Shown here in pieces: positions 1,242 to 19,227 of a DNA stretch of 55,300 bases. The stretch covers positions 1-55,300 of the forward strand of contig WGCS01000060.1 in the NCBI GenBank assembly GCA_015493685.1. Direction: 5' to 3'. The DNA comes from Bacteroidales bacterium (GTDB taxonomy: Bacteria; Bacteroidota; Bacteroidia; Bacteroidales; UBA1556). The notes under the pieces are model-generated. The model ran no database searches. It was given only the letters and a program-made list of their open reading frames with translations, and was not told the origin of the DNA. Made by a program: the position numbers and the translations under genes. Every line of letters starts with the position of its first letter. Positions within the stretch are counted from its first letter, which is position 1.

Positions 1242-4200
1242 ATTATTTCACCCTTTTTAAGTTGTCCATTATTATACTCCTGATAAATACAATGAGGCTT
1301 CCTTTACAAGCTCAAGAATCAAACTATTGGCAGCAAAAAGTAAACTATCATATCAATGTAAAGTTAATTGACAGTAGCAATACATTGCAAGCCCATATTA
1401 AAATCATCTATTACAACAACTCTCCCAACACACTGAATTTCATTTACATGCACCTATGGCCCAATGCCTATTCTGGTGATGGCACGGCACTTAGCAATGA
1501 TTTGTTAAAAAGAGGAAACGCTGACTTATATTATGCCACTGAAGATAAACTGGGCAATATTACTAATCTCGATTTCCGTTGCAATAAGCAAAAATTAAAT
1601 TGGTCTTTTGACCCAAAAAATCATGATATTGCAAAAATTATACTTCCCCAAGGCTTAAAGAGTGGTGATTCCATTGAAATAAGTACCCCTTTCAGAGTAA
1701 AGATTCCCTCAGCAGAGTTTTCGCGTTTAGGCCATAGTGGACAATCCTACCAGATAACCCAATGGTATCCTAAGCCAGCTGTATATGATGCAAAAGGATG
1801 GCATACAATGCCTTATCTTAATCAGGGTGAATTTTATTCGGAATATGGAAATTATGATGTTTATATTAGTCTTCCACAAAACTACCGAATATGGGCAACA
1901 GGCGATTTAATTGATGGCGAGAAAGAAAACCATTGGCTTGATTCCATTGCTGCCGCTACTGCCAAAATCAAGAAATTCCCAGAAGATTTATCCTTCCCTC
2001 CTTCCTCTATCAAGAGCAAAACCCTTCATTTTCATCAAGAGAAAGTACATGACTTTGCTTGGTTTGCCGATAAACGCTATTATGTTTTGAGAGGAAAGCT
2101 AAGCTTAGCAAATGGGCATAGCGTACGAACCCAAAGTATGTTTACCAATGAAGATGCTTTTTTGTGGACCAAAAGTATCGACTATATTGATAGTGCAACA
2201 TCATACTACTCTCAGAGAGTAGGAAATTACCCCTACCATTGGGTAACAGCAGTGCAAGGCACTTTAAGTGCCGGTGCAGGCATGGAATACCCCAATATAA
2301 CAATCATCGGACAAGCCGAATCAAGTACAGATTTAGAAGAAGTTATATTGCATGAAGTTGGCCATAATTGGTTTTATGGCCTATTGGGTTTCAATGAGCG
2401 AGATTATCCTTGGATGGATGAAGGTATTAATACTTTTTATCAAACCGAATATATGAATCACTATTATCCACATTTAAACCTATCACAAAAATATTTTCAC
2501 AAAAACATAAGTATTTTAGGACTCGACAAACTTACCGATCTTGATGAGATGTATTATACAAATCGTTTTATGGCTTCCTATAATTTGGATCAAGCATGCA
2601 ACCTGACATCGTCAAAATATACTACTGCCAATTACGGCATCATTATTTACGAGAAAGTACCCCTATTGTTTAAGTATCTACAATCTTACCTTGGTAAAGA
2701 AAATTTCGATACTATTATGCATGGATTTTATCAAAAATGGAAATACAAACATCCTCAACCTGAGGATATTAAAAGCTATTTTGAAGCAAAGAGCAAAAAA
2801 AATCTATCTTGGTTCTTTGATGGTTTATTGGTAAGTAAAGAACGCACCAATTATAAAATTTGCAAAGCCAAAGAAAAGGAGGGCTGTATAAGTCTGAAAA
2901 TAAAAAACAAAGGGAATAATAACAGCCCCGTATTCATCAAAACACGTAACAGCATAGGAAAGATTAATTCTACACAATGGATAGATGGATTCTCAGGCAC
3001 AAAAACCATCACCTTAAAAGCTAAAGATTATTCCCGAATTGGAATTAACGAAGCTCCCTATCTGCTCGATTATGATCAGGGCAATAACTATTATTACCCC
3101 AAGAAAATCTTTAAAAAGCGGAAAATCCTAAAATTTAAGTTTATCAGCAGTATTCCCAAGGAAGAACAATCAATAGTTTACTATACTCCGGTAATGGGCT
3201 GGAACTTATATAATAAATTTATGTTTGGTGTTCTTCTGTACAACCATTCTATTTTTGAAAAGAAATGGGAATATGAACTTATGCCGCTATATTCCACACG
3301 TACCAAAGACTGGAATGGATCTGCTGCTATTAGGCACAACTTTTATACCTCCGGAGGAATACGAAGAATAAGTCTTGGAATATCTGCAAAGAGATACCAC
3401 TACGACATTGGTCATTTCGAGAATTCATTTCAACGAATAGTTCCCGGTATAAAGCTCTATTTTAAAAATCCTGATGGGAATACAAGCATCAAAAATCAGA
3501 TGCAATTTCGCGTAGTAATAATAGATAAACAATTTGACCACTACGAATATCAACCTTCATTATCAAATTACACAATAAAACAAGCAACACAATATTATAC
3601 AGTTTATAATTTTAATTACACCCACGAAAACAAACGTATAATAACGCCCTATAAATTTCGCTATAATTTAGAATTCAACAAAGAAATAGTAAAAATGGAC
3701 TTCCGCACGGAGGTAAGTGTCAATTATTTTGCGCCAAAAAAATACTTGGAAATTGGTTTCTTTGGCGGCTATATGCTTAAGTATCCTAAAAATCCACAGG
3801 TGGACTATTCCTATAAAATGAGCTCATGGTCCGGCAGCGAAGACTACCTATACGATTATATTTTCCTAGGCCGGTCAGCGCGTAATGGCCTATTGGGAAA
3901 TCAAATGGTACAACGTGACGGTGGATTTTACATCCCTTCAGCTCTTGGCCGTAGCTGGGGGTTTCTAGGTTCGATAAATCTACGTTCCAGCTTACCCTTT
4001 ACTAATTTTATCAAAATATATTTTAACGCCGGAGTTTCTGTCAACCCAACATCACTACAAGTTCAGGATTCCAAAAGTCCACTCTACGAAGGCGGAGTAA
4101 TTTTGTCAATTATCAACAAAGATTTAGAAATCTATTTCCCCGTATTACTTGATGCAAAAACGAAGAACTATCTCGCGTTAAATAACATTTCTTATGTTAA

Positions 4201-4270
4201 TACGATTAGATTTACCATGCGATTGAATTTACTTAATCCATTTAAAGCATTAAAAGAACTACATTTGTAA
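1238..4270 (+). CDS. Secreted M1-family zinc aminopeptidase with long C-terminal extension
   Basis: Signal peptide, YWQQ.V.Y.I start, GAGMEYP, HEVGH followed by WMDEG. ATGA overlap with the upstream gene. Confidence 0.85.
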   Translation: MNYFTLFKLSIIILLINTMRLPLQAQESNYWQQKVNYHINVKLIDSSNTLQAHIKIIYYNNSPNTLNFIYMHLWPNAYSGDGTALSNDLLKRGNADLYYATEDKLGNITNLDFRCNKQKLNWSFDPKNHDIAKIILPQGLKSGDSIEISTPFRVKIPSAEFSRLGHSGQSYQITQWYPKPAVYDAKGWHTMPYLNQGEFYSEYGNYDVYISLPQNYRIWATGDLIDGEKENHWLDSIAAATAKIKKFPEDLSFPPSSIKSKTLHFHQEKVHDFAWFADKRYYVLRGKLSLANGHSVRTQSMFTNEDAFLWTKSIDYIDSATSYYSQRVGNYPYHWVTAVQGTLSAGAGMEYPNITIIGQAESSTDLEEVILHEVGHNWFYGLLGFNERDYPWMDEGINTFYQTEYMNHYYPHLNLSQKYFHKNISILGLDKLTDLDEMYYTNRFMASYNLDQACNLTSSKYTTANYGIIIYEKVPLLFKYLQSYLGKENFDTIMHGFYQKWKYKHPQPEDIKSYFEAKSKKNLSWFFDGLLVSKERTNYKICKAKEKEGCISLKIKNKGNNNSPVFIKTRNSIGKINSTQWIDGFSGTKTITLKAKDYSRIGINEAPYLLDYDQGNNYYYPKKIFKKRKILKFKFISSIPKEEQSIVYYTPVMGWNLYNKFMFGVLLYNHSIFEKKWEYELMPLYSTRTKDWNGSAAIRHNFYTSGGIRRISLGISAKRYHYDIGHFENSFQRIVPGIKLYFKNPDGNTSIKNQMQFRVVIIDKQFDHYEYQPSLSNYTIKQATQYYTVYNFNYTHENKRIITPYKFRYNLEFNKEIVKMDFRTEVSVNYFAPKKYLEIGFFGGYMLKYPKNPQVDYSYKMSSWSGSEDYLYDYIFLGRSARNGLLGNQMVQRDGGFYIPSALGRSWGFLGSINLRSSLPFTNFIKIYFNAGVSVNPTSLQVQDSKSPLYEGGVILSIINKDLEIYFPVLLDAKTKNYLALNNISYVNTIRFTMRLNLLNPFKALKELHL

Positions 4271-4275
4271 CCAAT

Positions 4276-5028
4276 ATGAAGACAAACAATCACCTCTATT
4301 TTATCTCCGATGTTCACTTGGGAGTACCCACCTACGAAGACAGCTTAGCACGAGAAAAAAGACTTGTTAGTTTTTTACAAAGCATTGAAGATAAGGCTAG
4401 TGACCTATTTATCCTCGGCGATTTATTCGATATGTGGTTTGAATATAAGCAGGTGATTCCCCGTGGGTACGTACGTCTGTTAGGCCAGTTAGCTCGTATG
4501 AGTGATGCCGGTATTAAACTCCATTATTTTGCTGGAAATCACGATATGTGGATCTTTGATTATTTTGAGAAAGAGATAGGAGCAATAATATACCGACATC
4601 CCCAATCATTTCTCTTTAACAATAAACGGTTTTATCTTGGTCATGGTGATGGATTAGGCCCCGGAGATAAGAGTTATAAATTTATTAAACGAATTTTTGC
4701 CGGCAAATTAAACCAATGGATGTTTGCCCGTTTACATCCTAATTTTGCTTTAGGATTAGCCAACAAACTATCTAGCCGAAGCCGAGCAGCTAACGGAAAT
4801 TTTGAAGAAGAAAGCGCTGATATTGAAGCTGAATTTTTGGTCCGATATTGCAAAAAACTACTTACAAAAGAACATTATGATTATTTTATTTTTGGGCATC
4901 GACATATTGCCATTGATTACAATTTAGGTAATAAATCTCGCTATATTAATTTAGGAGAATGGGTAAAAAATCCACATTATGCCTATTTTGATGGAGAAAC
5001 ACTAAAATTGATAAAATATAAGAAATAA
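4276..5028 (+). CDS. lpxH: UDP-2,3-diacylglucosamine diphosphatase
   Basis: Metallophosphoesterase motifs SDVHLG, LGDLFD.W, GNHD, HGDG, FGHRH, NLGEW. Confidence 0.85.
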   Translation: MKTNNHLYFISDVHLGVPTYEDSLAREKRLVSFLQSIEDKASDLFILGDLFDMWFEYKQVIPRGYVRLLGQLARMSDAGIKLHYFAGNHDMWIFDYFEKEIGAIIYRHPQSFLFNNKRFYLGHGDGLGPGDKSYKFIKRIFAGKLNQWMFARLHPNFALGLANKLSSRSRAANGNFEEESADIEAEFLVRYCKKLLTKEHYDYFIFGHRHIAIDYNLGNKSRYINLGEWVKNPHYAYFDGETLKLIKYKK

Positions 5029-7071: not shown

Positions 7072-9837
7072 CTATCCTACAACAATATTAACAATTCTTT
7101 TGGGTACAACAATTACTTTACGGATGGTTTTTCCTTGAAGCCATTTTTGAGATTCTTCTGCCTTAAGGACAGCCTTTTCCACCTCTTCTTTTGACAAATC
7201 AATGGGAAGATTTAGCTTAAAGCGCATTTTCCCATTGAAAGAAACAGGATAAGAGAAGTCATTTTCTTTAACAAAGTCGGCATTAAAGACAGGAAATTCG
7301 GCTAAAGTAATACTCTGCTCATGCCCCATTAAAGACCATAGTTCTTCAGCAATATGAGGAGCATAGGGCGCAATAAGAATGCTGAAAGGCTCTAAAATTG
7401 CTCGCTTATTGCATTTCAAATCAGAAAGTTCGTTCACAGCAATCATAAAAGCACTTACTCCCGTATTGAAACTAAACCTCTCGATATCATTTTCAATCTT
7501 AGCAATGGTTTTATGAAGAACTTTAAGCTCAGCCGCCGTTGCTTTTTCATCACTTAATACAAAGTCATTATCCTTATTATGAAACAGCTTCCAGAATTTA
7601 CGCATAAAGCGGTAAACTCCTTCAATACCTTTAGTATCCCAAGGTTTAGATTGTTCGATAGGTCCAAGGAACATTTCGTAAAGGCGAAGTGTATCCGCAC
7701 CATATTTTTCAATTAATTCATCGGGATTCTGTACATTATAAAGACTCTTTGACATTTTTTCTACCTCATGTCCACAGATATACTTTCCCTCTTCAAGAAT
7801 AAATTCTGCTTCAGCAAAGTCCGGCTGCCACTTTTTAAAAGCTTCTATATCAAGAATATCATTGTCAACAATATTAATATCGACATGAATACGCTGAGTG
7901 TCATACTTATTGCGCAGTCCAAAACTTACAAATTTACTCGTACCTTTAATTCTATATACAAAGCTGGATCGCCCTTGAATCATTCCTTGATTAATTAATT
8001 TTTTGAATGGCTCTTCCTTAACGACCATCCCCATATCATAAAGAAACTTATTCCAAAAGCGCGAATATATCAAATGGCCGGTAGCATGTTCGGCACCACC
8101 GATGTATAAATCTACATCCTGCCAATAGTTGATAGCCTGTGGCGAAAAGTACTGCTTGGAATTCTGTGGATCCATATAACGAAGATAATAACCACTAGAA
8201 CCTGCAAAACCCGGCATGGTATCTACTTCCAGAGGATATCCCTCTTTTGTCTTCCAGTTTTTAGCCCTTGCCAATGGCGGTTCTCCTTTTTCTGTAGGGA
8301 GATATTTATCCACAGCAGGCAGTTCCAAGGGCAGATCATTAATGGATAAAACATAAGGCATTCCTTCTTTATAATATACAGGAAAAGGTTCACCCCAATA
8401 ACGCTGGCGGGAGAATATCGCATCACGAAGTCTAAAATTAATTTTCTTTTCTCCTATTCCAAGTTTAGTGATTTTCAGGATGGCAGCACCGATGGCTTTT
8501 TTTACACTAAGGCCATTTAAGAAAGCTGAATTCATAAGTACACCTTCTTTGGCATCGTAGGACTCCTCGGAGATATCTCCTCCGGAAACAACTTGAATAA
8601 TTGGAATATCAAACTTTTTGGCAAAAGCATAATCTCTATTATCGTGAGCAGGGACAGCCATAATAGCACCGGTGCCATAACCCATAAGTACATAATCGGC
8701 AATCCAAATTGGAATTTTCTCTCCTGAAAATGGATGAATGGCATAAGAGCCGGTAAATACACCGGTAACTTTCTTTACTTCTGTCATCCGTTCTCTTTCA
8801 GTACGCGATTTTGCCCATTTCACATAAGCTTCAACTTCTTGTTGTTGCTTATCGATGGTTAATTTATTCACCCAATCATGTTCCGGAGCTATTACCATAA
8901 AGGTAGCGCCATACAAGGTATCCGGTCGAGTGGTAAACACTTCCAAAGAATCGTTATACTTTTCTAATTTAAAAAACACCTTAGCCCCTACCGATTTACC
9001 AATCCAATTGCGTTGCATTTCTTTTAAAGAATCACTCCAATCAACTTGGTCCAAACCATCGAGCAAACGCTGCGCATAAGCCGTAACTCGCAAGCTCCAC
9101 TGTTTCATCACCTTGCGCTCAACAGGATATCCACCACGTACCGAAAGCCCATCTTTTACTTCATCATTGGCAAGTACTGTTCCCAAGGCGGGGCACCAGT
9201 TTACAGCAGTATTACTTTGATAGGCCAAACGATAATTCATCAAAATCTCTTGCTGCTGATATTTATCCATTGCTTTCCACTCCTCAGCAGTAAAATTTTT
9301 CACTTCACCGCAAGCTGCATCTACCTTTTTACTTCCATTGAGCTTAAATATCTGCTCCAACATTGATATGGATTCTGCTTTTTTGCTTCCATTACTATAC
9401 CACGATGAAAAGAGTTTAGTAAAAACCCACTGTGTCCATTTATAGTAATTTGGATCGGAGGTGCGTACCTCTCTATTCCAATCAAAAGAGAAGCCAATCT
9501 TCCCCAATTGTTCTTTATACCGTTTAATATTTACCTCTGTGGTAATGGCAGGATGTTGTCCTGTTTTGATGGCATACTGTTCTGCAGGCAATCCATAAGC
9601 ATCAAAGCCCATGGGATGCAATACATTAAAACCTTTGTGACGTTTGTAACGGGAATAGATATCAGAAGCTATATAGCCCAAGGGATGCCCCACATGAAGT
9701 CCTGCCCCCGAAGGATAAGGAAACATATCCAAAACATAATATTTAGGTTTGCTTTCATCTATTTCTACCCGATAAGTTTGTTGCTTTGTCCAATAGTTTT
9801 GCCACTTTTGCTCTATCACCTGAAAATTGTATTCCAT
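7072..9837 (-). CDS. leuS: Leucine--tRNA ligase
   Basis: [44 protein letters not shown]. Confidence 0.98.
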
Positions 9838-9944
9838 ATTGTAATGCTTTTTTAAAAATCAAGGGGCGAAATTAAGAAAAATTGATAATGATATTGTATA
9901 ATAAATAAGGCAGAATAGACAAAAAGGAGGCAAAAAAATATCAG

Positions 9945-10105
9945 AGCACCTAAGCTTATTAGCTTCCTTATGTCTGCAGGTCCCTTTCTACCACAAGCTC
10001 CAAGGTTACGCCGATAGTGAAAGGGCTAAACTTCCATTGTTCATTCGTAAAGAAAAACAGATTCGGAAACAGGGAAACAACGCTAAAGATAGCAGAACCG
10101 GAGTC
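9945..10105 (-). ncRNA. Candidate structured RNA (multi-stem), family unassigned
   Basis: Nested complementary segments in a GC-richer intergenic stretch: 9982-9988/10019-10025, 9959-9963/10082-10086, 9964-9967/10073-10076, 9971-9975/10067-10071. Mismatches become G-U pairs on the minus strand. Confidence 0.4.
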
Positions 10106-10106
10106 G

Positions 10107-10742
10107 TTATTTTATGGTTTTCACTAAATAATAATGATGCAAACTATAGGTTTTTACAAGCCCAGTACGCGGGTAATCTTGCCATAAAATTAGGCCAACA
10201 TTGGGAGCATAATAGGTATGACTCTTCGTTGAAAGATTTAAAAATGGCAAAAACCTTATTGACTCGGCATCGAGGGAAAAGTAAGAACCTTGTAAACAGC
10301 TGATTTTATTTAATGGTTTCTTCATGACACGATAAGTAACAGACAAAACATTCCCTGTTGAAGTTTTAGTTACCGACCTATGTAAAGTATCATCGATTGC
10401 ATTGGCATTAAAAAACCGTTCCCCTTTTTCATCAATATAATAGTGGGCAGAATCGCGTAAATATTGAACATAAGAAGAGGAATAACCCGATTTAAAGACA
10501 AAAAATTTATCACCATGAATAAGAGTATCTGCTGCGATATATGTACTATCATAGCCAATAAAACTACTATTCCCAGCTGTATCAACATTAGAAACATTAT
10601 ACACCCAATAATTACCAACAGACAAGGGAATATATGAATCAGCCTCACCAATGGTTTTGTCAATACTCACCTCTTTCTGTTTCTTACAGGCCATAGTTGT
10701 TGCCAGCAGAACTATTAAGGCAAAAATTATCTGTTTCATCAC
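10107..10742 (-). CDS. Hypothetical beta-rich lipoprotein
   Basis: Lipobox TMAC, YIPLSVGNYWVY N-terminal motif, YYAPNVGLI C-terminal motif. Confidence 0.7.
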   Translation of the reverse strand: MMKQIIFALIVLLATTMACKKQKEVSIDKTIGEADSYIPLSVGNYWVYNVSNVDTAGNSSFIGYDSTYIAADTLIHGDKFFVFKSGYSSSYVQYLRDSAHYYIDEKGERFFNANAIDDTLHRSVTKTSTGNVLSVTYRVMKKPLNKISCLQGSYFSLDAESIRFLPFLNLSTKSHTYYAPNVGLILWQDYPRTGLVKTYSLHHYYLVKTIK

Positions 10743-10761
10743 CTATTTTTTTAAACTAATA

Positions 10762-11379
10762 TTATTGTATTTTACTTAAACCATCCATTGCTGAGGCATC
10801 ATTAGGGCTTAGCCATAAAACCTTATTAAACAATATCTTAGCCTCTCTAAATCTTCCTAAATAATAGTTGTTCCAGGCCGTATTGAGTACTACATCATAA
10901 GTAAACGGATATTGATTAATCAATAACTTAAAATACGGTTCAGCAATCTCGTATTTGGTACGGCTCATATAAATCTGCCCTAATTTTAGATTAGCGGTAT
11001 AATTAGCTTTATCAATCTTAAGCACCTCCAAATAAGCATTAATTACTTGTTCCCAATTACCCATTGCCGCAGCAGGATAAGTAAGCCCCATAAGGGCTTC
11101 GATACTTAATGGTTTTAATGAAATACTTTTTTTATAATAACTCATACTCTCGGTATATTGACCGGCGAGATAACTAAGCCATGCCAAGCGTATATTAATA
11201 GCATACGAATCTTTTTGATACACCTTTTTTAAATCAATGACAGCGGCTGAATATTCGCCTTTATTTTCTTGCGTATAACTGTCTTTGAATGCCTCAGCAA
11301 TATTACTCTGCGCATTTAACGAAATGGTTACGATGCCGATAAAAAGAAGCATTAGTACTGATTTTTTTAAAATTTCCAT
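10762..11379 (-). CDS. Exported tetratricopeptide-repeat protein
   Basis: Signal peptide (LNA-Q) and successive TPR-like helices (LAWLSYLAGQYTESMSYY, LGQIYMSRTKYEIA, AWNNYYLGRFREA). Confidence 0.8.
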   Translation of the reverse strand: MEILKKSVLMLLFIGIVTISLNAQSNIAEAFKDSYTQENKGEYSAAVIDLKKVYQKDSYAINIRLAWLSYLAGQYTESMSYYKKSISLKPLSIEALMGLTYPAAAMGNWEQVINAYLEVLKIDKANYTANLKLGQIYMSRTKYEIAEPYFKLLINQYPFTYDVVLNTAWNNYYLGRFREAKILFNKVLWLSPNDASAMDGLSKIQ

Positions 11380-12692
11380 TGTATTCCTCCTAAAATATTA
11401 AATTGATTATAATTAATTATTTGTTTAAATTCTTTACCATTGGTATCATACTCTAATTTATCTGCATATTTCCACCAATACTGTCCACCGGCAAAAAGAT
11501 TAAAATAGGTATTTAATACATAAATAATTTTTGTACTAGCCATTCCATAAATATGATTCGCAATTTCGAAAGAATAGTTATTTGATAATAGGGTAAAGTT
11601 TTTCACATCACCATAAATCACTTCTCCTTCGAGCCAAGTGTTTTTAACTAGCTTAATGCCCAGCTGTTGATACAATATGGGCCGAAATTGAGGAGTAACA
11701 TCTCTAGTCATAAATACCTGGGTATGAGAATATAGATCCAAATTACCCTTTGGAAACCAAATGAAAGAAGCTCCCACTTGCAATTGACGACTTTTATCTC
11801 CAAAATTAGAGACAGCACCACTTATTCCCCAGCGAATATTCTTATATCGATGTTGATAATCAAGGCCTAGCATAAAGCTTGTTTTAGCATAGGGATAAAA
11901 ACCCAAAGCATTAGTAACAGTATCAACAATACCAAAAGGATTTCCATTAACAAAAGAGAGACCCACAGCCGATGAAAGACTAGATTTTCTATTCCATTGA
12001 TATTGTGATTTAATATTAACCACTTTTTGATTTACTTTATAATTTCTAGTGTCAAAAACACTTTCATTTTCAATGGCCCCAACCATTGCCAAGTCGGCAT
12101 AGCCATAATCAACCCAGAGCTGCATTTTACGACTTATAATTGCCGTAGCGCCTCCACTAAACATGCTAATCGCCTGCTGATAATCCGTTTGAGAGAAAAT
12201 ATTTCTCTTTGATAAACGCAATTGCCTTTGGGATATCAAAGGTATTGCCTTCCCATAAAGCGCATCAAAATACACACTACCTCTATATTTTATACCCACA
12301 AGGCGGTCAAGGCTATCACCATAAACCAGTAAACTATTGGCAGTTATATTTTGCTTAGTGTAGAGTAAAGATTTGAAATATATTGATTTAAAATACGGAT
12401 CAAAAAGTGCTGATTTATTTTGCGAATAAGCATTTCCCAGAAAATAGGCTGCCATCATATAATCCGATTTGAGAAAATAGGCAGCACCCACTCTATAATT
12501 AAGATAATAATAATCAATATGATTTCGCTTTGCCTCTTTAGCAAGCCGAAGTAAAGAATCACATTGTGCTGAATAATAATATTTTACACTTAATGAATCT
12601 ACTTTCTTAAAGCCTATATCCTGTGCAGTAGTCCACTTTGCAAAAGTGAGCACCAGTATAAATATTAGTATTCTATTTTTCTCTATTTTCAT
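11367..12692 (-). CDS. Putative outer-membrane protein: TPR-like N-terminus plus C-terminal beta-barrel
   Basis: Signal peptide, helical YRVGAAYFLKSDYMMAAYF segment, alternating amphipathic strands, C-terminal GGIQWKF ending in Phe. Confidence 0.55.
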   Translation of the reverse strand: MKIEKNRILIFILVLTFAKWTTAQDIGFKKVDSLSVKYYYSAQCDSLLRLAKEAKRNHIDYYYLNYRVGAAYFLKSDYMMAAYFLGNAYSQNKSALFDPYFKSIYFKSLLYTKQNITANSLLVYGDSLDRLVGIKYRGSVYFDALYGKAIPLISQRQLRLSKRNIFSQTDYQQAISMFSGGATAIISRKMQLWVDYGYADLAMVGAIENESVFDTRNYKVNQKVVNIKSQYQWNRKSSLSSAVGLSFVNGNPFGIVDTVTNALGFYPYAKTSFMLGLDYQHRYKNIRWGISGAVSNFGDKSRQLQVGASFIWFPKGNLDLYSHTQVFMTRDVTPQFRPILYQQLGIKLVKNTWLEGEVIYGDVKNFTLLSNNYSFEIANHIYGMASTKIIYVLNTYFNLFAGGQYWWKYADKLEYDTNGKEFKQIINYNQFNILGGIQWKF

Positions 12693-12712
12693 GTATTTAA
12701 ATTCTATTGATT

Positions 12713-12738
12713 CAGTGTTATAAAGTCATATAACACTG
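12713..12738. repeat. Perfect 10-bp inverted repeat CAGTGTTATA-aagtca-TATAACACTG
   Basis: Read directly from sequence. Confidence 0.8.
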
Positions 12739-12751
12739 TTTTAATCATTGC

Positions 12752-12780
12752 CCTGCATTGTCTATCAATAGACAGGCAGG
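12752..12780. repeat. REP-like hairpin CCTGC..TGTCTAT-ca-ATAGACA.GCAGG
   Basis: Direct complementarity; ends resemble the CCTGC...GACAGGCAGG palindromic repeats I recall from Bacteroidota genomes. Confidence 0.55.
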
Positions 12781-12865
12781 ACAAATTAAGTTTAAAAATT
12801 GGCATAGCTAAGGCCAAGCCTTCGGTATTCGTTTAATATTATTACAATCCTAAACGATGGAATAA

Positions 12866-15064
12866 TTACTTCCTTCTATATCTATACTCATTACCATCAA
12901 TAATTAATTTCCAATATGTATTATCAGAAGAAGCGCAGCTAAATTCCGCTTCAACCTTATGCACTACTTTATGCCAAATTACTTCTGTATATTTCGCTTT
13001 AAGATGAATTTCGCTTTCGTCAAGAAATTGTTTTCTACTTAAATATTGCATCGAGAATTTAGGACGTATAAAAATATAGAATGGGGCAACAAAATCTTGT
13101 ATAACTTTAGCAAAGCGAGTCTTAGACAAGGTAATTGGAATATCATCAGAAACTACTATATCTTTGTAGTAGCCGAATATTAATCGATATGAAGTCAGGA
13201 AGAACAGATATAAAGGATCTTCTTTTGAACCAACATAAGAAGTAAAAATAAGTTCTTGCTCATTTAATTTAAAATAAGCATAGCTGTTAGTTTCCTTACT
13301 ATAAAGGTAGCTTTGATTATATAAATCTACACCAACTGTCCAATGTATGTTTGTGGCCATTGATTTATTATCGAGGTCCGAATCTACCAGCTCCCAATTG
13401 ATTTCCATCCCCGGAATAAAGCGAAATGCTTTCCTTAAGCTAGTATCCGTTTTAATATTGCTTAGTTGCTCTCCTTGATTTGGAATTCCGTTGGCGACGA
13501 AGGTAAATTTATCTCTTTTGTTAATCACATAAGGGCCAATGGTATATCTCATGGTTTTAGAGCCTACAAAAGGCGTTGCCTGCAACTGAAAGTGCAAATG
13601 TGGCACCGGTGACCGCCCTGAATTTCCCACAGAGGCAACTATTTCACCCTTACGCACATGCTGGCCCTTATAAACTTTAAAGCTTCCCTTTTTAATGTGA
13701 CTAACTTGACTATACAAATATTGAGCATGCTTTATTACAATAGTATTACCCCAATTATGCACCATATCAATTTCACCAATAATATTATCGTCATATAAAT
13801 CAACAATCTCCACTATTTCTCCATCAGCAGGAGCTACAATGGCTTTGTTGTAACAATAATAATCCTCGGGTTCATTTCCTTCATTATCATATTCCAACCC
13901 ATTCTCTTCAATTACAAAATCCCATGCATATTGCCAATCTTCCTTATGGGTATATTCCCCATTATGTCCTTGATTAATAGACCATTCACCATAGAAAGGC
14001 AGCGAAATTGGAATCTGTGCACTATCACCAAAACGACGATAAAAATTCAAATTAGTATATAAATTCTTCTCCGGTGAAAAATGCTGATAAATAACCAGCT
14101 CAGGCTTTCTAAAAAAATGTTCCCTGTATTTCAATACCAGCAAGAAACTAATTACTACTATATTAAATGGAAGAGAAAAAGTCGATAGCTGAAACTGCGA
14201 CAGCACCTCTGACGAACCCGATACCAGTAGCGAGAGAACCGGAATTAACAAAACAATTACAACAAAAGAATAGATGGAAGGAATAATAAAATATCCTCCA
14301 ATAGCAATGGCTGTTAAGATAAAGTTAAAGCCAATATATCCATAATTTAAATCTCCCAAATTGGCACCAATAATTTGGTAATACCAATAGGCCGAATAGA
14401 AACCCAGCAAACTAAGCAGAAAAGAAATTCTGGAGTTTAGCAGCAATACAATGGCAATAATAATTCCGGCATAAACATTATATTGGAAGAATATTGCTCC
14501 AAGTGAAATAAAATATAGATTCAACGATGCCGGTATTCTCAAACTCAAGAAAGAAAAATGAGATTGTAATAAATCATTTCCTCCCAATAGTACAATATCG
14601 TTGTACACATACACCCCTTGCTCGCTAACTTCCAAGGCTCCATAATGCCGTGCTGCCAAACTCACCGTCCAGATACCAAATAAAAAGGGAAGACTCAAAA
14701 AAGGCAATCCATATTTACTTAATATTGCTTCCAACACAACCGTAACAAACAAGGTAAGAACAGCTGAAAATACCACCAACAGCATCAATTGCCAATTAAG
14801 CTGATAGTATATTCCCAGCCCCAAACCAACAAGCAAACTATTGAAACCATAGATTCCATTAATAATCTTAGTTCTATTCAGCCCCAACAGATACGCTGTA
14901 ATATGTGTTGCGCCAATGGCCACAATACCACTAAGTCCGGCGGTAAAATTAAAGAAAGAAACTAGCAATAAAGCTAAGCCCAATAGCTTACCATCAGAAA
15001 AGAATATCTGAGAATAGCTATGGACAACGCTAAGACCTATGGATTTGATACTGGCTTTTGTCAT
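12866..15064 (-). CDS. Urea-transporter-like membrane domain fused to an M23 zinc peptidase domain and an unknown C-terminal domain
   Basis: Two UT-like repeats (SYSQIFF/GIYGFN/LSLPF and LGAIFFQ/GYIGFN/FSLPFN). M23 motifs H..(W.YAW)D, APADG, WGNTIVIKH, GNSGRS..PHLHFQ. ATG 15064 preferred over TTG 15070. Confidence 0.85.
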   Translation of the reverse strand: MTKASIKSIGLSVVHSYSQIFFSDGKLLGLALLLVSFFNFTAGLSGIVAIGATHITAYLLGLNRTKIINGIYGFNSLLVGLGLGIYYQLNWQLMLLVVFSAVLTLFVTVVLEAILSKYGLPFLSLPFLFGIWTVSLAARHYGALEVSEQGVYVYNDIVLLGGNDLLQSHFSFLSLRIPASLNLYFISLGAIFFQYNVYAGIIIAIVLLLNSRISFLLSLLGFYSAYWYYQIIGANLGDLNYGYIGFNFILTAIAIGGYFIIPSIYSFVVIVLLIPVLSLLVSGSSEVLSQFQLSTFSLPFNIVVISFLLVLKYREHFFRKPELVIYQHFSPEKNLYTNLNFYRRFGDSAQIPISLPFYGEWSINQGHNGEYTHKEDWQYAWDFVIEENGLEYDNEGNEPEDYYCYNKAIVAPADGEIVEIVDLYDDNIIGEIDMVHNWGNTIVIKHAQYLYSQVSHIKKGSFKVYKGQHVRKGEIVASVGNSGRSPVPHLHFQLQATPFVGSKTMRYTIGPYVINKRDKFTFVANGIPNQGEQLSNIKTDTSLRKAFRFIPGMEINWELVDSDLDNKSMATNIHWTVGVDLYNQSYLYSKETNSYAYFKLNEQELIFTSYVGSKEDPLYLFFLTSYRLIFGYYKDIVVSDDIPITLSKTRFAKVIQDFVAPFYIFIRPKFSMQYLSRKQFLDESEIHLKAKYTEVIWHKVVHKVEAEFSCASSDNTYWKLIIDGNEYRYRRK

Positions 15065-15075
15065 TAACAATGATT

Positions 15076-16434
15076 TTACAATTCGAAGCTACTTAAATGT
15101 TTTGGTACTTTTTCCAAATTGCTAATGGTACTCATTTGCTCCTGTTCTCTAATAATCTCAACATCACCACTTTCTGTGATCATAAGCACATTAGGTCTAA
15201 GGGTAATAAACTGCATCCACTGAGTCATATTATAGGCTCCAACACGATGTATCACCACATGGTCACCGGTATTTAACAGAGGCAAACTAATATTCTCTCT
15301 TATCACATCAATATTCATACACAAAGGACCATAAAGCACAGTATCTTCCACATGATGCGAAAAACTCTGAGCAGGAGTTATTTTATGTTCATACCAGAAA
15401 CTGGTAAATAATAAATTAACTCCAATATCGAGGATAGTAGTTCTTTTACCAATGCTATTTCGCTTATTGGCAATCACTGAGCCCAACAAATAGGCCGAAT
15501 CATCAATAAGTGCACGGCCGGTCTCCAATATTAACGTTGGCAAATGGTCGGGATGAATATTACTATTCAATAATGACGAAGTAATTGCCTCTGCATATTC
15601 ATCAAAACTTGGATTAGTATCTTCTGCCGGCAGATAAGCTCCCTTGAGGGTGTTCTTTGAGGCAAAACCTCCTCCCAAGTCAATATATTTTATATAATAA
15701 TCATATTTCTGTTTTATACCTACAGCCAAGTCAGCCAATTTCTTGGCGGCAATACCATAAGGCGCTGCTGTCATCATATAAGTGCCAATATGAGCATGCA
15801 ATCCAATAAGATCCATTTTCTTCGATATCATAATCTTATTCAGCACATCCCATGCCTGTCCATTTTCATAATTAAAGCCAAAGCGATCCCAGATTGGATA
15901 AATACCCGTATCCATATTAACGCGAATTGCAACCTGAGGACGAAGCGACAATTCTTCGGCAAGATCAAGAATCATATAGTATTCGTCCAAATGATCAATA
16001 TGAATAAGTGATTTGTTCTCTATCGCCTTTATTAAGTCTAGTCTGGTTTTATCGGGTCCATTAAAAATAATATTTCTCCCGTCAACACCATTCCCCAATG
16101 CTTTATCGTATTCAAAACCAGAAACCACTTCTGCCCACGATCCTAATTGATGAAAAGTATTGCATACCGCACTTAAGTAATTTGTTTTATAACTCCAGGC
16201 AAATTGCACTTTCGGATAGCGTGTATTAAAAGCACGTTGAGCATTATGGTATGTCTTACGAATTACTGATTCTGAAATTACATATACCGGTGAACCATAT
16301 TTATCAATAATATCTTTTACTGCAACACCCTCGATATGAGTCATGGGTTTAAACTCTGTTCTCATGCCAAATTTATTGGGCATTGAGTTTTCTAGTCTCT
16401 TTATTATAGGACGTTCATATTTTAGTTTTGTCAT
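15076..16434 (-). CDS. Fold-type III PLP-dependent decarboxylase (diaminopimelate/ornithine decarboxylase-like), substrate unknown
   Basis: YGSPVYV, WSYKTNY (PLP Lys), NGPDK, HAHIGT, DLGGGF, ETGR, GPLCMNID, GAY. Confidence 0.85.
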   Translation of the reverse strand: MTKLKYERPIIKRLENSMPNKFGMRTEFKPMTHIEGVAVKDIIDKYGSPVYVISESVIRKTYHNAQRAFNTRYPKVQFAWSYKTNYLSAVCNTFHQLGSWAEVVSGFEYDKALGNGVDGRNIIFNGPDKTRLDLIKAIENKSLIHIDHLDEYYMILDLAEELSLRPQVAIRVNMDTGIYPIWDRFGFNYENGQAWDVLNKIMISKKMDLIGLHAHIGTYMMTAAPYGIAAKKLADLAVGIKQKYDYYIKYIDLGGGFASKNTLKGAYLPAEDTNPSFDEYAEAITSSLLNSNIHPDHLPTLILETGRALIDDSAYLLGSVIANKRNSIGKRTTILDIGVNLLFTSFWYEHKITPAQSFSHHVEDTVLYGPLCMNIDVIRENISLPLLNTGDHVVIHRVGAYNMTQWMQFITLRPNVLMITESGDVEIIREQEQMSTISNLEKVPKHLSSFEL

Positions 16435-16463
16435 CGTATTTTAATTTTTAGTGTTAATTATAT

Positions 16464-17507
16464 TTACAATTCTCCCAAAGAAGATATTTTCTCAAAGTCT
16501 TCAATATTTACAATCATATCATAGGAATACCTAACAAACATTTTTCCCACATCATAACTATTGTACTTTTCTACCTTATTGCCCATTGCCAAGTTAACCA
16601 ATGCTTCGGGAATATTTTGGCCAACACCAACGGCGAGATAAATCCACGCGGGCATACGAGGATTAATTTCGAGCAAATGGTAAGCGCCATCTTGCGACTT
16701 CATCAACTCCAACTCAAAGCCTCCTCTCCATTTTGTTTTACTTACAAAATTATCGGTCAACTGAAGCATCTCTTTATTATCAATGGAAATTCCACCCCAT
16801 GCTTTTCCTTTATCGGTAATATATTGTTTTCGCATAGGCACCGCAGCAATGGTATTTCCTTCTCCATCACCCAAACCGGTGATATTATATTCGTCACCGC
16901 GAATAAATTCTTGCACTACAATTGGCAAGCCCCACTTGGCACTTATTTTATTAAAAAATGTTTTAGCCTGCTCAATATTATAAGCAATATGCGCATCATA
17001 GAATTTCCCTTTTATAAGTAGAGGAAATAATAAATCGGTACTTAACTGATACAGTTCGGAGGAATCATATATCGCCTCTGAGCGAGGTACATTAATACTA
17101 TATTTCTCTCCAAAGTCAGGTAAATTTACTTTATGACGTTCTTCAAATTGCTGAATAGTAGGCAGGAAAGTATGAATATTCATTGCCAGAAGCTCTTTTT
17201 CCAATTTCATAAAAGAGTATAACTCAGCATCAAAATTTGGAATAATCACATTCAGATTCTCTTGTGCATTAATGTATTCGAGTCTTGCTTTTAACACTTC
17301 CGTCCCTGCAGAAGGATAAGGAATATGGTACACTTTATCAAAAAGATCATGCATATATATCCCCGGTTCCAAGGACTCATAACTCAATCCAATTAAACGG
17401 ACATTAAAAGATTTTGCCTCGCGTAAACCCCTGGCTACTGCTACTCCAGGACCCGGATTATCAATAGCATTAAGTCCACTTAATGCTATGGTGTAGGTTG
17501 GTTTCAT
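16464..17507 (-). CDS. ATP-grasp ligase (carbamoyl-phosphate-synthase-like fold)
   Basis: FPLLIKG, VVQEFIRGDEY, FELELMK, LLEINPR. Confidence 0.85.
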   Translation of the reverse strand: MKPTYTIALSGLNAIDNPGPGVAVARGLREAKSFNVRLIGLSYESLEPGIYMHDLFDKVYHIPYPSAGTEVLKARLEYINAQENLNVIIPNFDAELYSFMKLEKELLAMNIHTFLPTIQQFEERHKVNLPDFGEKYSINVPRSEAIYDSSELYQLSTDLLFPLLIKGKFYDAHIAYNIEQAKTFFNKISAKWGLPIVVQEFIRGDEYNITGLGDGEGNTIAAVPMRKQYITDKGKAWGGISIDNKEMLQLTDNFVSKTKWRGGFELELMKSQDGAYHLLEINPRMPAWIYLAVGVGQNIPEALVNLAMGNKVEKYNSYDVGKMFVRYSYDMIVNIEDFEKISSLGEL

Positions 17508-17538
17508 ATATTTATAATTTATTAATTCGATGTCATTA

Positions 17539-17778
17539 CTATTTTAATAACTGATATTGTTGAAGCATTTCCTTAAAATCCTGAAAATCTTTGCTAAAAG
17601 TATTTCTATCGGTATCGTAATCTGCTAAAAACAGATTTTGAATTTCATCATCACTCTTTTCTTCTTTTATCATTTTAAGAAGTTTTCTACCTGATTCATT
17701 TAAACTAAATGACTCACCAGAACTGGGATTAAATACAAATCCGTTGTCGCTAATGGCTAAATTTTCGTTGATTTTCAT
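17539..17778 (-). CDS. Stand-alone PqqD-family / RiPP recognition element (RRE) protein
   Basis: 79 aa. Three strands then LNESG..LL, helix, Y.TD, D...F...L...LL is the PqqD winged-helix pattern. Confidence 0.85.
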   Translation of the reverse strand: MKINENLAISDNGFVFNPSSGESFSLNESGRKLLKMIKEEKSDDEIQNLFLADYDTDRNTFSKDFQDFKEMLQQYQLLK

Positions 17779-17910
17779 AAACTATTCTTTAAATTATTTG
17801 TTCTAATTATTCTCTTGCTTTTAGCTCCACTACCATCAGTACTAAAAAGAAATACATTCTTCAGAGGTGTCAATGTTCTCTTTTAAAAGAACATTTTTTA
17901 ATGGGAGTAT

Positions 17911-17928
17911 TTATTATTGCAATAATAA
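17911..17928. promoter_or_regulatory. Perfect 18-bp palindrome TTATTATTGCAATAATAA, candidate operator
   Basis: Self-complementary; about 130 nt upstream of the PqqD gene. Confidence 0.45.
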
Positions 17929-18406
17929 CGCTAAGTATCAAATTTAATGTATACTATTTCATAAATATTGTGTAACTTTTTAAACTAAAACATTGATATT
18001 CGCAAGAGCTGATTTTGAGGACACGAAATATATTCACAACTATAAAGCTTTTAAGATATGCCTATTTTTCTTGAAATGAGTGAATACTATTCCCAAGCAA
18101 TTTACATAAGTATCAACGATAAGCTGTTCTATCCTCTATTTATATATATTGCACCTTCTAATATTCCACTATTCTCCTACTATTCAGGGTCAAAAATATA
18201 TACCTAAAACAACGTAACCTTAATACTAAAATAAAAGTATACCGTTTATATTATGACAACAGTAAATTAAAACCTAAAAATACAATAATAGACCACAAAA
18301 CACATAGGGATTAACAAATTAAATTTTGTTGATATAATAAAAAATTTATGTAGTTTTACAATCCTTAAAATGGTTTTTATAAAGTCATTATCACAGAATA
18401 CGTTTT

Positions 18407-18667
18407 ATGAAATTTACAAAACATAGAATAAACAAATACAAGTGGCTAATAGGTCTCTTTATTGTTATAGGCTTATCTTTTAGCTCGTGCCAACGGGCGC
18501 GATTTCGGTCGATGATAAAGAAACGGCGCACCGGTCATATCAAAAGAAAGACTCACCATAGCGCCTATCAAAAGAAGCTTCGTAAGCGCACTATTTCTAC
18601 GAGTACTAAATACTATATCAAAAAGCAAAATAAGAATTATCGTCGCAAACCTTGGTATAATAAGTAA
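18407..18667 (+). CDS. Small, very basic putative lipoprotein
   Basis: Hydrophobic stretch plus FSSC lipobox. 23 K/R in the 59-aa mature part and no D/E. Confidence 0.65.
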   Translation: MKFTKHRINKYKWLIGLFIVIGLSFSSCQRARFRSMIKKRRTGHIKRKTHHSAYQKKLRKRTISTSTKYYIKKQNKNYRRKPWYNK

Positions 18668-18774
18668 GAGCGATACAGCTTTGACATCAAGTAATCTTAA
18701 TTTTATCCCATTGCTAATTCTTCTACATGGTGTATTCACTACTAATTTAAATTCATAATTATTACTTTTGCCTT

Positions 18775-19227
18775 ATGATAAATGTTTATAATGACGACTT
18801 CTTTATGAAAGAGGCTCTAAAGGAAGCCCAACTAGCACTACAAGAGAATGAAGTCCCCATAGGGGCTGTGGTAGTTTGCAATAAGCAAATTATTGCCCGA
18901 GCACATAATATGACAGAAAGGCTCAATGATGCTACCGCCCATGCTGAGATGCTTGCCATCACGGCTGCCGAAAACTACCTGGGAAGTAAATACCTCAACG
19001 AATGCACTTTATATGTTACTCTTGAGCCTTGTGTAATGTGTGCCGGAGCAAGTTTTTGGAGTCGGATTGGGAAAATTGTGTATGCTGCCCCCGATTTGCG
19101 CCATGGCTATAAAAAAGCCGGAGACAAGCTATTCCATCCTAAAACAGAAATTGTTAGCGGAATTATGGAAGCTGAATGTGCAAGCATTATTAAAGATTTC
19201 TTTAGCAAGAGAAGAAACTTACAATAA
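18775..19227 (+). CDS. tadA: tRNA adenosine deaminase / nucleoside deaminase
   Basis: EVPIGAV, TAHAE, TLEPCVMCAGA. Confidence 0.85.
   Translation: MINVYNDDFFMKEALKEAQLALQENEVPIGAVVVCNKQIIARAHNMTERLNDATAHAEMLAITAAENYLGSKYLNECTLYVTLEPCVMCAGASFWSRIGKIVYAAPDLRHGYKKAGDKLFHPKTEIVSGIMEAECASIIKDFFSKRRNLQ

Follow-up and report, generated by a model that had tools for sequence, protein, structure and literature searches.

What does a bacterial operon make that joins a PqqD-like protein to an amide ligase, an amino acid decarboxylase and a peptidase-bearing channel of the urea type, and how would the product leave the cell? The question is raised by seven co-oriented open reading frames, g1 to g7, found on the minus strand at positions 10107-17778 of the window, which here means the whole 55,300 nt stretch that was analysed (Bacteroidales bacterium, UBA1556; assembly GCA_015493685.1, contig WGCS01000060.1, positions 1 to 55,300). 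A preliminary description of this DNA saw in it an orphan cluster dependent on a RiPP recognition element (RRE; RiPP, a peptide made by the ribosome and modified after translation), which makes an amide-linked product and exports it across both membranes. The conserved unit is a self-contained six-gene operon, g1 to g6, of Bacteroidota-type bacteria. The cluster is rated here as a biosynthetic module of a ligase and a conjugate decarboxylase, equipped with an unprecedented adaptor and export leg.

A conserved six-gene operon

The seven reading frames lie exactly where the preliminary description had placed them. From g1 to g7 the gaps are 31, 29, 5 (11 when counted from the ATG) and 173 nt, followed by a 13 nt overlap and a gap of 19 nt. 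Family scans also find the domains named at that time, i.e. PqqD, ATP-grasp, a fold-III pyridoxal phosphate (PLP) decarboxylase, a urea transporter (UT) domain, an M23 peptidase domain and tetratricopeptide repeats (TPR).

Relatives of the UT-M23 fusion in Flavobacterium, Flavobacteriaceae and Bacteroidetes metagenome-assembled genomes (MAGs) show g1 to g6 in identical order (3/3). In a census of 401 genomes of the phylum, representing 180 genera, the UT-M23 fusion is found in 55 genomes at E ≤ 1e-10; it is full-length in 31, the genome of the window among them, and 24 match in the M23 region only. The ATP-grasp gene is found in 31 of the 401 genomes at E ≤ 1e-20. These are the same 31 that carry the full-length fusion, the two are adjacent every time, and the carriers span 24 of the 180 genera.

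Gene order was compared by tblastn in 33 genome loci, consisting of about 18 kb around 30 carriers plus the three MAG loci (34 loci with the window). The order g2-g3-g4 is present in all 33, and g1-g2-g3-g4 in 31; of the remaining two, L065 breaks off where its contig ends, and L066 yields no g1 match. Taken singly, g2 and g3 are detected in 33/33 loci, g1 in 31/33, g6 in 30/33, g5 in 9/33 and g7 in 0/33. Metagenome loci, the best 80 of 537 relatives from a scan with the ATP-grasp profile, were counted only where the contig is long enough. They show PqqD upstream of ATP-grasp in 70/70, the decarboxylase in 63/63, UT-M23 in 40/42 and the TPR gene in 24/25. The start and stop codons of the PqqD and ATP-grasp genes overlap in 18 of the 24 loci in which both genes are called. 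This recurrence of gene order is far above chance. Thus the claim of a co-conserved cluster holds for g1 to g6, which are syntenic in genome and metagenome loci alike, and fails for g7.

The g7 reading frame (10107-10742, 211 aa) encodes a putative lipoprotein, with a signal followed by a cysteine (..TTMAC) as read from the sequence; it has no family match in Pfam or NCBIfam. Outside the window it is found in a single metagenome locus (L067, 1/80), the closest relative, at the same position and with 49% identity. It is a lineage-specific neighbour and not part of the core.

Several loci depart from the common arrangement. In metagenome locus L069 the PqqD, ATP-grasp and decarboxylase genes are present and the operon then stops, with no UT-M23 behind. 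L128, also from a metagenome, has no UT-M23; its decarboxylase has lost an internal stretch with the His-stack motif, and between ligase and decarboxylase sits a foreign open reading frame of 138 aa. Both look like decay of the operon. In L062, from a complete genome (G016:C1, ~2246036-2248116 and downstream), the UT-M23 gene is split by an in-frame TGA and about 6 kb of other genes lie between it and the TPR-barrel gene, which looks like a decaying or rearranged copy. The one-contig genome G337:C1 shows ATP-grasp at 3928-4947 and at 3735344-3736363, near both ends and with identical scores; these are probably the overlapping ends of a circular assembly and no true duplication. The extra open reading frames of the divergent loci L063, L064 and L066 were rejected as mobile-element or spurious frames.

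The ligase, the decarboxylase and the PqqD-like protein

The signature enzyme of the cluster is g2 (16464-17507, 347 aa), an ATP-grasp amide ligase that matches ATPgrasp_Ter at 45.3 bits (cut-off 29.1) and ATP-grasp_3 at 25.1 bits. Its NCBIfam matches, to "carbamoyl phosphate synthase-like" models, stay well under the cut-offs, and no graspetide maturase model matches it there or in Pfam. The closest matches of a profile built from 30 homologues are 2pn1 and the ATP-grasp modules in the large chain of carbamoyl-phosphate synthetase (CPS; E = 4e-17); it is also near biotin carboxylases, PurD and MfnD, with RimK and cyanophycin synthetase lowest in the list. K166 is invariant, as are E280, N282 and R284 of the E-x-N-P-R block. 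By profile comparison g2 is nearer to small-molecule enzymes than to RimK or the graspetide maturases.

The ligase and the decarboxylase are also found joined in one chain. P0121 is a natural ATP-grasp/decarboxylase fusion (854 aa, 43% identity) in which the CMNID, FWY and TQWMQ motifs recur. A second fusion, P0124 (752 aa), is more distant, and it has a 758 aa relative on a plasmid of Streptomyces zaomyceticus (L154; NZ_CP108525.1, 8992-13425). There the fusion is followed by an overlapping 195 aa protein of unknown type and then by a 505 aa membrane protein that resembles fatty acid desaturases; the neighbours include neither PqqD nor UT-M23. Because such fusions exist, one of them in a setting without PqqD or UT-M23, the ligase-decarboxylase pair is a module of its own. 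The search for long g2 relatives also returned P0122 and P0123, in which only 38% of the query is covered.

The decarboxylase, g3 (15076-16434, 452 aa), belongs to a distinct subfamily related to FigC and LysA. Pfam matches are Orn_Arg_deC_N (98.7 bits) and Orn_DAP_Arg_deC (46.3 bits). The score is 241 bits with the FslC model (NF041039; cut-off 500) and about 207 bits with the LysA model (TIGR01048; cut-off 297.9). The nearest solved structure is 7kh2, an N-citrylornithine decarboxylase (FigC/FslC), at 2.1e-59, followed by archaeal LysA (1.5e-40) and BtrK (3e-23). The catalytic positions K83, H215, G254-256, E304, R307 and C372 are invariant in 34/34 sequences, and so are W347, M373, I375 and Q405.

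The residues given in the accessible part of the FigC paper (PMC7857480) were placed on the alignments. According to that text, a Met following the catalytic Cys of FigC stands in place of the Asp to which a free amine on the side chain binds, and His357 and Arg387 bind the citryl group (PMC7857480). On this mapping Met373 of g3 follows the catalytic Cys as in FigC, where diaminopimelate decarboxylase (DAPDC) has an acidic residue, and the position of the DAPDC arginine is Thr344. The Cys-Met loop and the Thr/Tyr of the specificity helix are common to g3 and FigC. The citryl-binding pair H357/R387 corresponds to Ile375/Gln405 throughout the g3 family (34/34). The pocket of g3 is therefore, on the alignments, conserved and neutral, neither LysA-like nor specific for citryl groups.

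A separate, canonical LysA is present in 5/5 other carriers tested, scoring 366-475 bits against 216-240 for the cluster enzyme. It is proposed that g3 acts on a conjugate and not on free diaminopimelate (DAP). For a fold-III PLP decarboxylase to act, the alpha-amino and alpha-carboxyl groups on the same carbon must both be free, so that a substrate of g3 could be joined elsewhere only through its side chain. The family also carries a conserved N-terminal extension, YERPxI...NKFG (region of residues 1-33), which might, as a matter of speculation, serve as a docking tail for the PqqD-like protein.

In the genome of the window itself (95% complete, 324 contigs) the LysA model matches g3 alone, with a sub-cut-off score of ~206 bits, and a search of this assembly found no canonical lysA.

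The first gene of the operon, g1 (17539-17778, 79 aa), encodes a stand-alone PqqD-family protein of the RRE fold. The Pfam PqqD match has an E-value of 4.1e-10 and 40.3 bits (cut-off 23.4), and 20 sequences all agree at G13, F14, F16, G21 and L72. The best NCBIfam matches are the HPr-rel-A PqqD and lasso PqqD models, all below cut-off, the lasso models reaching 17.6-23.6 bits against cut-offs of 70-80. To our knowledge the characterised PqqD/RRE relatives are all peptide binders or chaperones. Longer proteins retrieved with the PqqD profile amount to one of 177 aa, and no informative fusion was seen among them. A complex prediction for g1 and g2 gave a score of 0.01 and a mark of 0.32, a result that carries no weight either way.

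A peptide substrate was looked for among open reading frames of 15-120 aa up to 1.5 kb upstream (34 loci) and, in 75 loci and on both strands, among those of 18-100 aa lying anywhere but within large genes. No conserved precursor-like small open reading frame is found near the cluster in the 75 loci, nor a repeat-core graspetide precursor; the one shared family is PqqD itself (59 loci) with its shadow frames. Many loci have overlapping genes and hence no space for a further open reading frame. A 32 aa frame at 17775-17873 (minus strand), which overlaps the start of g1, was considered and rejected as a precursor, being conserved at no other locus. The upstream non-coding region 17779-18406, presumed to hold the promoter, likewise contains no open reading frame conserved at other loci. 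With no linked precursor in 75 loci, a RiPP reading requires a precursor that is unlinked. Of the earlier label "RRE-dependent", the presence of an RRE-fold protein stands and the dependence is unproven.

The envelope leg and the surroundings of the operon

The g4 gene (12866-15070) encodes a fusion of 734 aa, or 732 aa from the ATG at 15064, made up of a UT channel domain, an M23 domain and a beta-rich domain. An AlphaFold2 (AF2) model made from 31 sequences has a mean predicted local distance difference test (pLDDT) score of 88.7. Residues 1-330 (14081-15070) match Pfam UT at 189 bits (1.4e-55), and the family profile matches dvUT at 4e-50. Residues 1-345 superimpose on UT-A3, UT-B and dvUT with a VIA-align Z of 36 and a root-mean-square deviation of 2.4-3.3 over 308-315 aligned residues. 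Both UT halves display the pore signature LPxLSLPF, in which Ser replaces Thr. The NCBIfam equivalog urea_trans_yut gives 121 bits, below its cut-off of 274.6.

The M23 (LytM-type) metallopeptidase domain occupies residues 352-515 (13526-14017). Pfam Peptidase_M23 matches at 55.2 bits (cut-off 28.7), and the region ~352-530 aligns with the DipM, Csd, EnvC and LytM domains at VIA-align Z 14.5-12. H375, D384, H458, H491 and H493 are invariant in 31 sequences, and the metal and catalytic set appears intact. In UT-B the C-terminus of the UT fold is intracellular, according to the portion of PMC12998343 that is accessible. The last UT helix of g4 is followed by a linker with seven Lys/Arg residues, and the central loop reads as acidic. 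Because M23 follows the intracellular UT C-terminus and the Lys/Arg-rich linker, the M23 and C-terminal domains very probably lie in the cytoplasm and not in the periplasm.

The C-terminal domain (residues 516-734 with the stop codon, 12866-13525) has no known family. The AF2 model, which is confident in this part, makes the last ~220-230 residues beta-rich, and at 668-733 long strands run antiparallel. Invariant positions here are G614 and L620. Residues ~545-734 show middling similarity (VIA-align Z 8.9-7.3) to 12-strand barrels and the ApoB sheet, from a query with the whole model that is weak for 530-734, and these matches may reflect just a common sheet arrangement. An Atlas look-up gave a best score of 0.81 and no family. 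In public data the UT-M23 fusion forms at least 3,103 clusters at 90% identity, named only "urea transporter" or "peptidase M23". The accessible text of PMC12998343 lists M23 among the domains fused to bacterial UTs, giving there neither function nor context.

The next two genes would lead outward. The AF2 model of g5 (11367-12692, 441 aa; mean pLDDT 75) displays a signal peptide, TPR-like helices at ~28-132 and about 14 strands within 139-441, and the best Foldseek matches are FadL, OmpG and TodX (E = 2.5e-10 to 1e-8). The earlier view of g5 as a TPR-barrel protein is supported by this model. Pfam and NCBIfam give no family match for g5 itself, while TPR hits occur in 13 of 15 members of its family. 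An Atlas lead to a TPR plus YaiO protein was dropped after no Pfam YaiO match appeared in 15 + 15 family members at E ≤ 1. The g6 protein (10762-11379, 205 aa) matches TPR_2 at 4e-15 as well as other TPR models, and its N-terminus reads as a signal-like segment, in keeping with a secreted, periplasmic TPR protein.

The barrel occurs in two arrangements. In 16/34 loci, the window included, a TPR plus barrel gene of ~400-450 aa is followed by a ~205 aa TPR gene; in another 16/34 there is a TPR gene and a separate barrel gene of ~270-310 aa. The remaining two, L065 and L066, show neither, so that a barrel of the g5 family is present in 32/34 loci. The stand-alone barrels of ~275 aa align with the g5 family at an hhalign probability of 96.6% (E = 5e-10), and three outlying separate barrels are reached by hmmsearch at E = 4e-10 to 3e-7. 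By these profile matches the separate barrels are homologous to the C-terminal two-thirds of g5. The low tblastn count of g5 (9/33) arises because many loci encode the barrel separately.

A structured spacer of 173 nt (12693-12865) separates g4 from g5. The structure noted in the preliminary description is borne out: the predicted RNA fold has -49.7 kcal/mol and z = -6.6, and 0 of 200 shuffles is as good. Pieces of the spacer recur in the same genome, with 88% identity over 73 nt on contig C176 and weaker copies on four other contigs. It is missing from related loci, where g4 and g5 overlap or nearly abut. The spacer looks like a small, genome-specific palindromic repeat element inserted into the operon, outside the conserved system. 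Rfam shows 0 matches at E ≤ 1 in 9800-18800, and a scan for promoters and terminators gives 48 promoter-like sites (43.2 +/- 6.6 in shuffles) and 3 terminator-like sites (5.0 +/- 2.7 in shuffles), promoter-like hexamers being no commoner than shuffling produces.

Base composition is uniform across the window, so that the cluster carries no mark of foreign origin. The flanks look by eye like housekeeping genes, with a leucyl-tRNA-synthetase-like open reading frame at 7072-9837 and a deaminase-like one at 18775-19227. At other loci, different neighbours are seen. A secreted protein of ~280 aa adjoins the operon in 7 of 13 loci that have the c6-type separate barrel, upstream of PqqD in L048, L050, L055, L060 and L061 and after the barrel in L054 and L056. 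It consists of a ~195 aa domain without known family and a type-IX-secretion C-terminal tail. The five upstream copies share 43-58% identity and lie 8-109 nt from PqqD (8-15 nt in 4/5). Comparison of g7 with these proteins shows no significant likeness (E = 0.3). An AraC-type regulator of ~195 aa with a weak heavy-metal-associated-like N-terminus is situated ~100 nt upstream of PqqD in L001-L003 (L001: 6584-7165); in L040 it lies ~2.5 kb upstream (1840-2451 of the oriented map) with three open reading frames between. The window has no such regulator.

A proposed pathway, its rivals and known systems

How might these parts work together? The chemistry, the role of the PqqD-like protein, the bond cut by M23, the cargo and its direction, and the product are proposed as follows, in a reading that we favour but hold tentatively. 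The ATP-grasp enzyme, aided by the PqqD-like protein, would form an amide (or thioester) by which the side chain of an amino acid becomes attached to an acceptor, either a small acid or amine or else a peptide held by the adaptor, leaving the alpha-amino and alpha-carboxyl groups free. The FigC/BtrK-like decarboxylase would then take the alpha-carboxyl off the conjugate, by analogy with FigA/FigC, SbnH and BtrJ/BtrK. The M23 domain, in the cytoplasm beneath the UT channel, would cut one of the conjugate's amide bonds. The product, a small amide or amine without charge, would exit through the UT pore and cross the outer membrane by way of the TPR-guided barrel. Among the products put forward in the preliminary description, a polyamide or a whole peptide is disfavoured as cargo by the urea-type pore and by a PLP decarboxylase whose substrate must be a free alpha-amino acid.

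Several points weigh against this pathway. All PqqD/RRE proteins known so far are binders of peptides, and with no conserved gene for a peptide in the 75 loci, an adaptor role for PqqD in a small-molecule route is unexplained. If M23 undid the bond made by the ligase, the net result would be a decarboxylation of an amino acid that wastes ATP; M23 must then cut another bond than that of the ligase, or serve another role. Its first motif has an unusual H-x8-D spacing instead of HxxxD, and LasA-type M23 enzymes likewise have a long spacer. The cytoplasmic placement of M23 would follow from homology to UT-B and from charge bias. The FadL/OmpG matches of g5 indicate a 14-strand barrel and no cargo.

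One alternative, possible although somewhat unlikely, keeps most of these steps and does away with a precursor gene. The PqqD-type adaptor may dock on the tail of a partner enzyme, e.g. YERPxI..NKFG of the decarboxylase, or may hold a reusable scaffold peptide; the tethered amino acid would be decarboxylated, freed by what would be the first known cytoplasmic M23 and vented through the UT channel to the TPR and 14-strand barrel. A RiPP whose precursor is encoded elsewhere is unlikely. PqqD would present the leader, the ATP-grasp enzyme would add an amino acid or a cross-link to the core, the decarboxylase would trim the side-chain-linked residue to an amine and M23 would be a leader peptidase fused to the exporter, giving a modified peptide. 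The above-cut-off PqqD match, with characterised relatives that are peptide chaperones, and the PqqD/ATP-grasp overlap in 18/24 loci suit this scheme; a peptidase fused to a membrane protein resembles the logic of PCAT (C39), and M23 enzymes cut glycine-rich sites. However, the search of both strands in 75 loci gave no conserved small open reading frame besides PqqD, overlapping genes leave no room for one in many loci, the urea-type pore is far too narrow for a peptide, and the ligase is of CPS-like type, without a match to any graspetide maturase model.

The other two rivals place the machine at the cell wall or reverse its direction. Remodelling of the envelope is very unlikely: here the ATP-grasp enzyme and the decarboxylase would act on the peptidoglycan stem peptide, e.g. 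at the free D-centre of meso-DAP or on an added residue, M23 would trim peptidoglycan peptides, and the TPR protein and barrel would anchor the machine to the outer membrane. A most likely cytoplasmic M23 fits this poorly, even though M23/LytM domains are classically peptidoglycan peptidases or regulators and all M23 structural matches are of that kind. A LysA-like enzyme without the distal-end residues would suit DAP embedded in a peptide, and ATP-grasp ligases such as D-aspartate ligase do extend peptidoglycan precursors; but a patchy distribution (31/401 genomes, 24/180 genera) is ill-suited to a basic wall function, the UT channel and the PqqD protein would have no role, and locus maps show no linked Mur or Pbp genes. 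Uptake or salvage is similarly improbable; in this scheme barrel and TPR and then UT would import a short peptide, a ureide or a small amide, which M23 would hydrolyse where the channel opens into the cell, and the decarboxylase and ligase would convert the pieces. UT channels are bidirectional, the 14-strand barrels FadL and OmpG are uptake pores, and an enzyme on the inner face of a channel is well placed to catch incoming substrate. Against this, an ATP-consuming ligase with a PqqD adaptor suggests synthesis, the ligase-decarboxylase fusion occurs in a different setting without a channel, and SusC/D-type or regulator genes are not consistently linked in the locus maps.

The operon is widespread, compact and apparently complete. 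Its combination of parts has not been seen elsewhere: an RRE-type adaptor with no peptide in sight, a ligase and a decarboxylase paired as in siderophore and butirosin synthesis, and a urea-type channel that bears a peptidase, probably on its inner face. Solving it should reveal a new metabolite and could show new uses of the UT fold and of M23 domains, perhaps also a non-RiPP role for PqqD-like proteins. If the reading with an adaptor that works without a precursor gene is true, the operon would be a new kind of trans-envelope machine for small molecules; it would provide the first function for UT-M23 fusions and define a new metabolite family of Bacteroidota, amines or amides.

No published description of the six-gene set was found in full-text literature searches, and the NCBIfam matches are all below cut-off, in agreement with the earlier statement that no characterised pathway has this gene set. 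In their accessible passages, PMC8939145 mentions PqqD by analogy only and PMC12710340 places ATP-grasp among RiPP markers. The partners of known RiPP systems are missing from the locus in family scans, as had been noted before: none of the seven cluster proteins matches PqqA, PqqB, PqqC or PqqE, and a lasso cyclase (Asn-synthetase-like) and a B2 protease (transglutaminase-like) are absent among them. The pathways of pyrroloquinoline quinone (PQQ) and mycofactocin, in which a small molecule is cut out of a peptide with the help of a chaperone (PqqD/MftB) and a peptidase, resemble the cluster in that one operon encodes both a stand-alone PqqD-family protein and a peptidase; a small product would be plausible for the cluster too. 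They differ in that the locus has no radical-SAM enzyme, PqqB or PqqC and no precursor gene was found, and an M23 peptidase fused to a channel is unlike either pathway. Graspetide operons of the microviridin type are similar in having an ATP-grasp enzyme in a compact operon, whereas g2 is CPS-like and no repeat-core precursor was found near the cluster; we know of no graspetide enzyme that uses a separate PqqD protein.

The transport parts also have partial counterparts. The urea transporters dvUT, UT-A and UT-B have the same fold (Z = 36) and the same pore signatures as g4, but g4 is fused to M23 and a beta-rich domain, carries Ser for the pore Thr and has no urease genes at its locus. PgaA, BcsC, PelB and Slam share the arrangement of a periplasmic TPR region joined to or beside an outer-membrane barrel, downstream of an inner-membrane component. 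In contrast to PgaA, BcsC and PelB, the barrel of the cluster has ~14 strands and is FadL/OmpG-like, and the gene maps of the loci contain no glycosyltransferase or synthase. Matches to TPR_Slam and BcsC models are weak and all below cut-off.

The closest parallels are to the ligase-decarboxylase pair. BtrJ/BtrK of butirosin synthesis likewise pair an ATP-grasp ligase with a fold-III decarboxylase, acting on a carrier-tethered glutamate; here there is no acyl carrier protein (ACP) among the conserved genes, the relation to BtrK is distant and there is no aminoglycoside context. The FigA/FigC (FslA/FslC) system of rhizoferrin and SbnH of staphyloferrin B differ from the cluster in other respects. 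The ligase of the FigA system is an NIS (non-ribosomal-peptide-synthetase-independent siderophore) synthetase where the cluster has an ATP-grasp enzyme. The Ile/Gln found at the sites of His357 and Arg387, the citryl-binding residues named in the accessible FigC text, argues that the acyl part is not citrate. No siderophore receptor or major facilitator superfamily (MFS) exporter accompanies the cluster, and the PqqD, UT-M23, TPR and barrel partners are new to it. What these siderophore systems share with g2 and g3 is the order of reactions proposed here: a ligase first links the side chain of an amino acid to an acid, and a fold-III enzyme related to LysA then removes the alpha-carboxyl of the conjugate.

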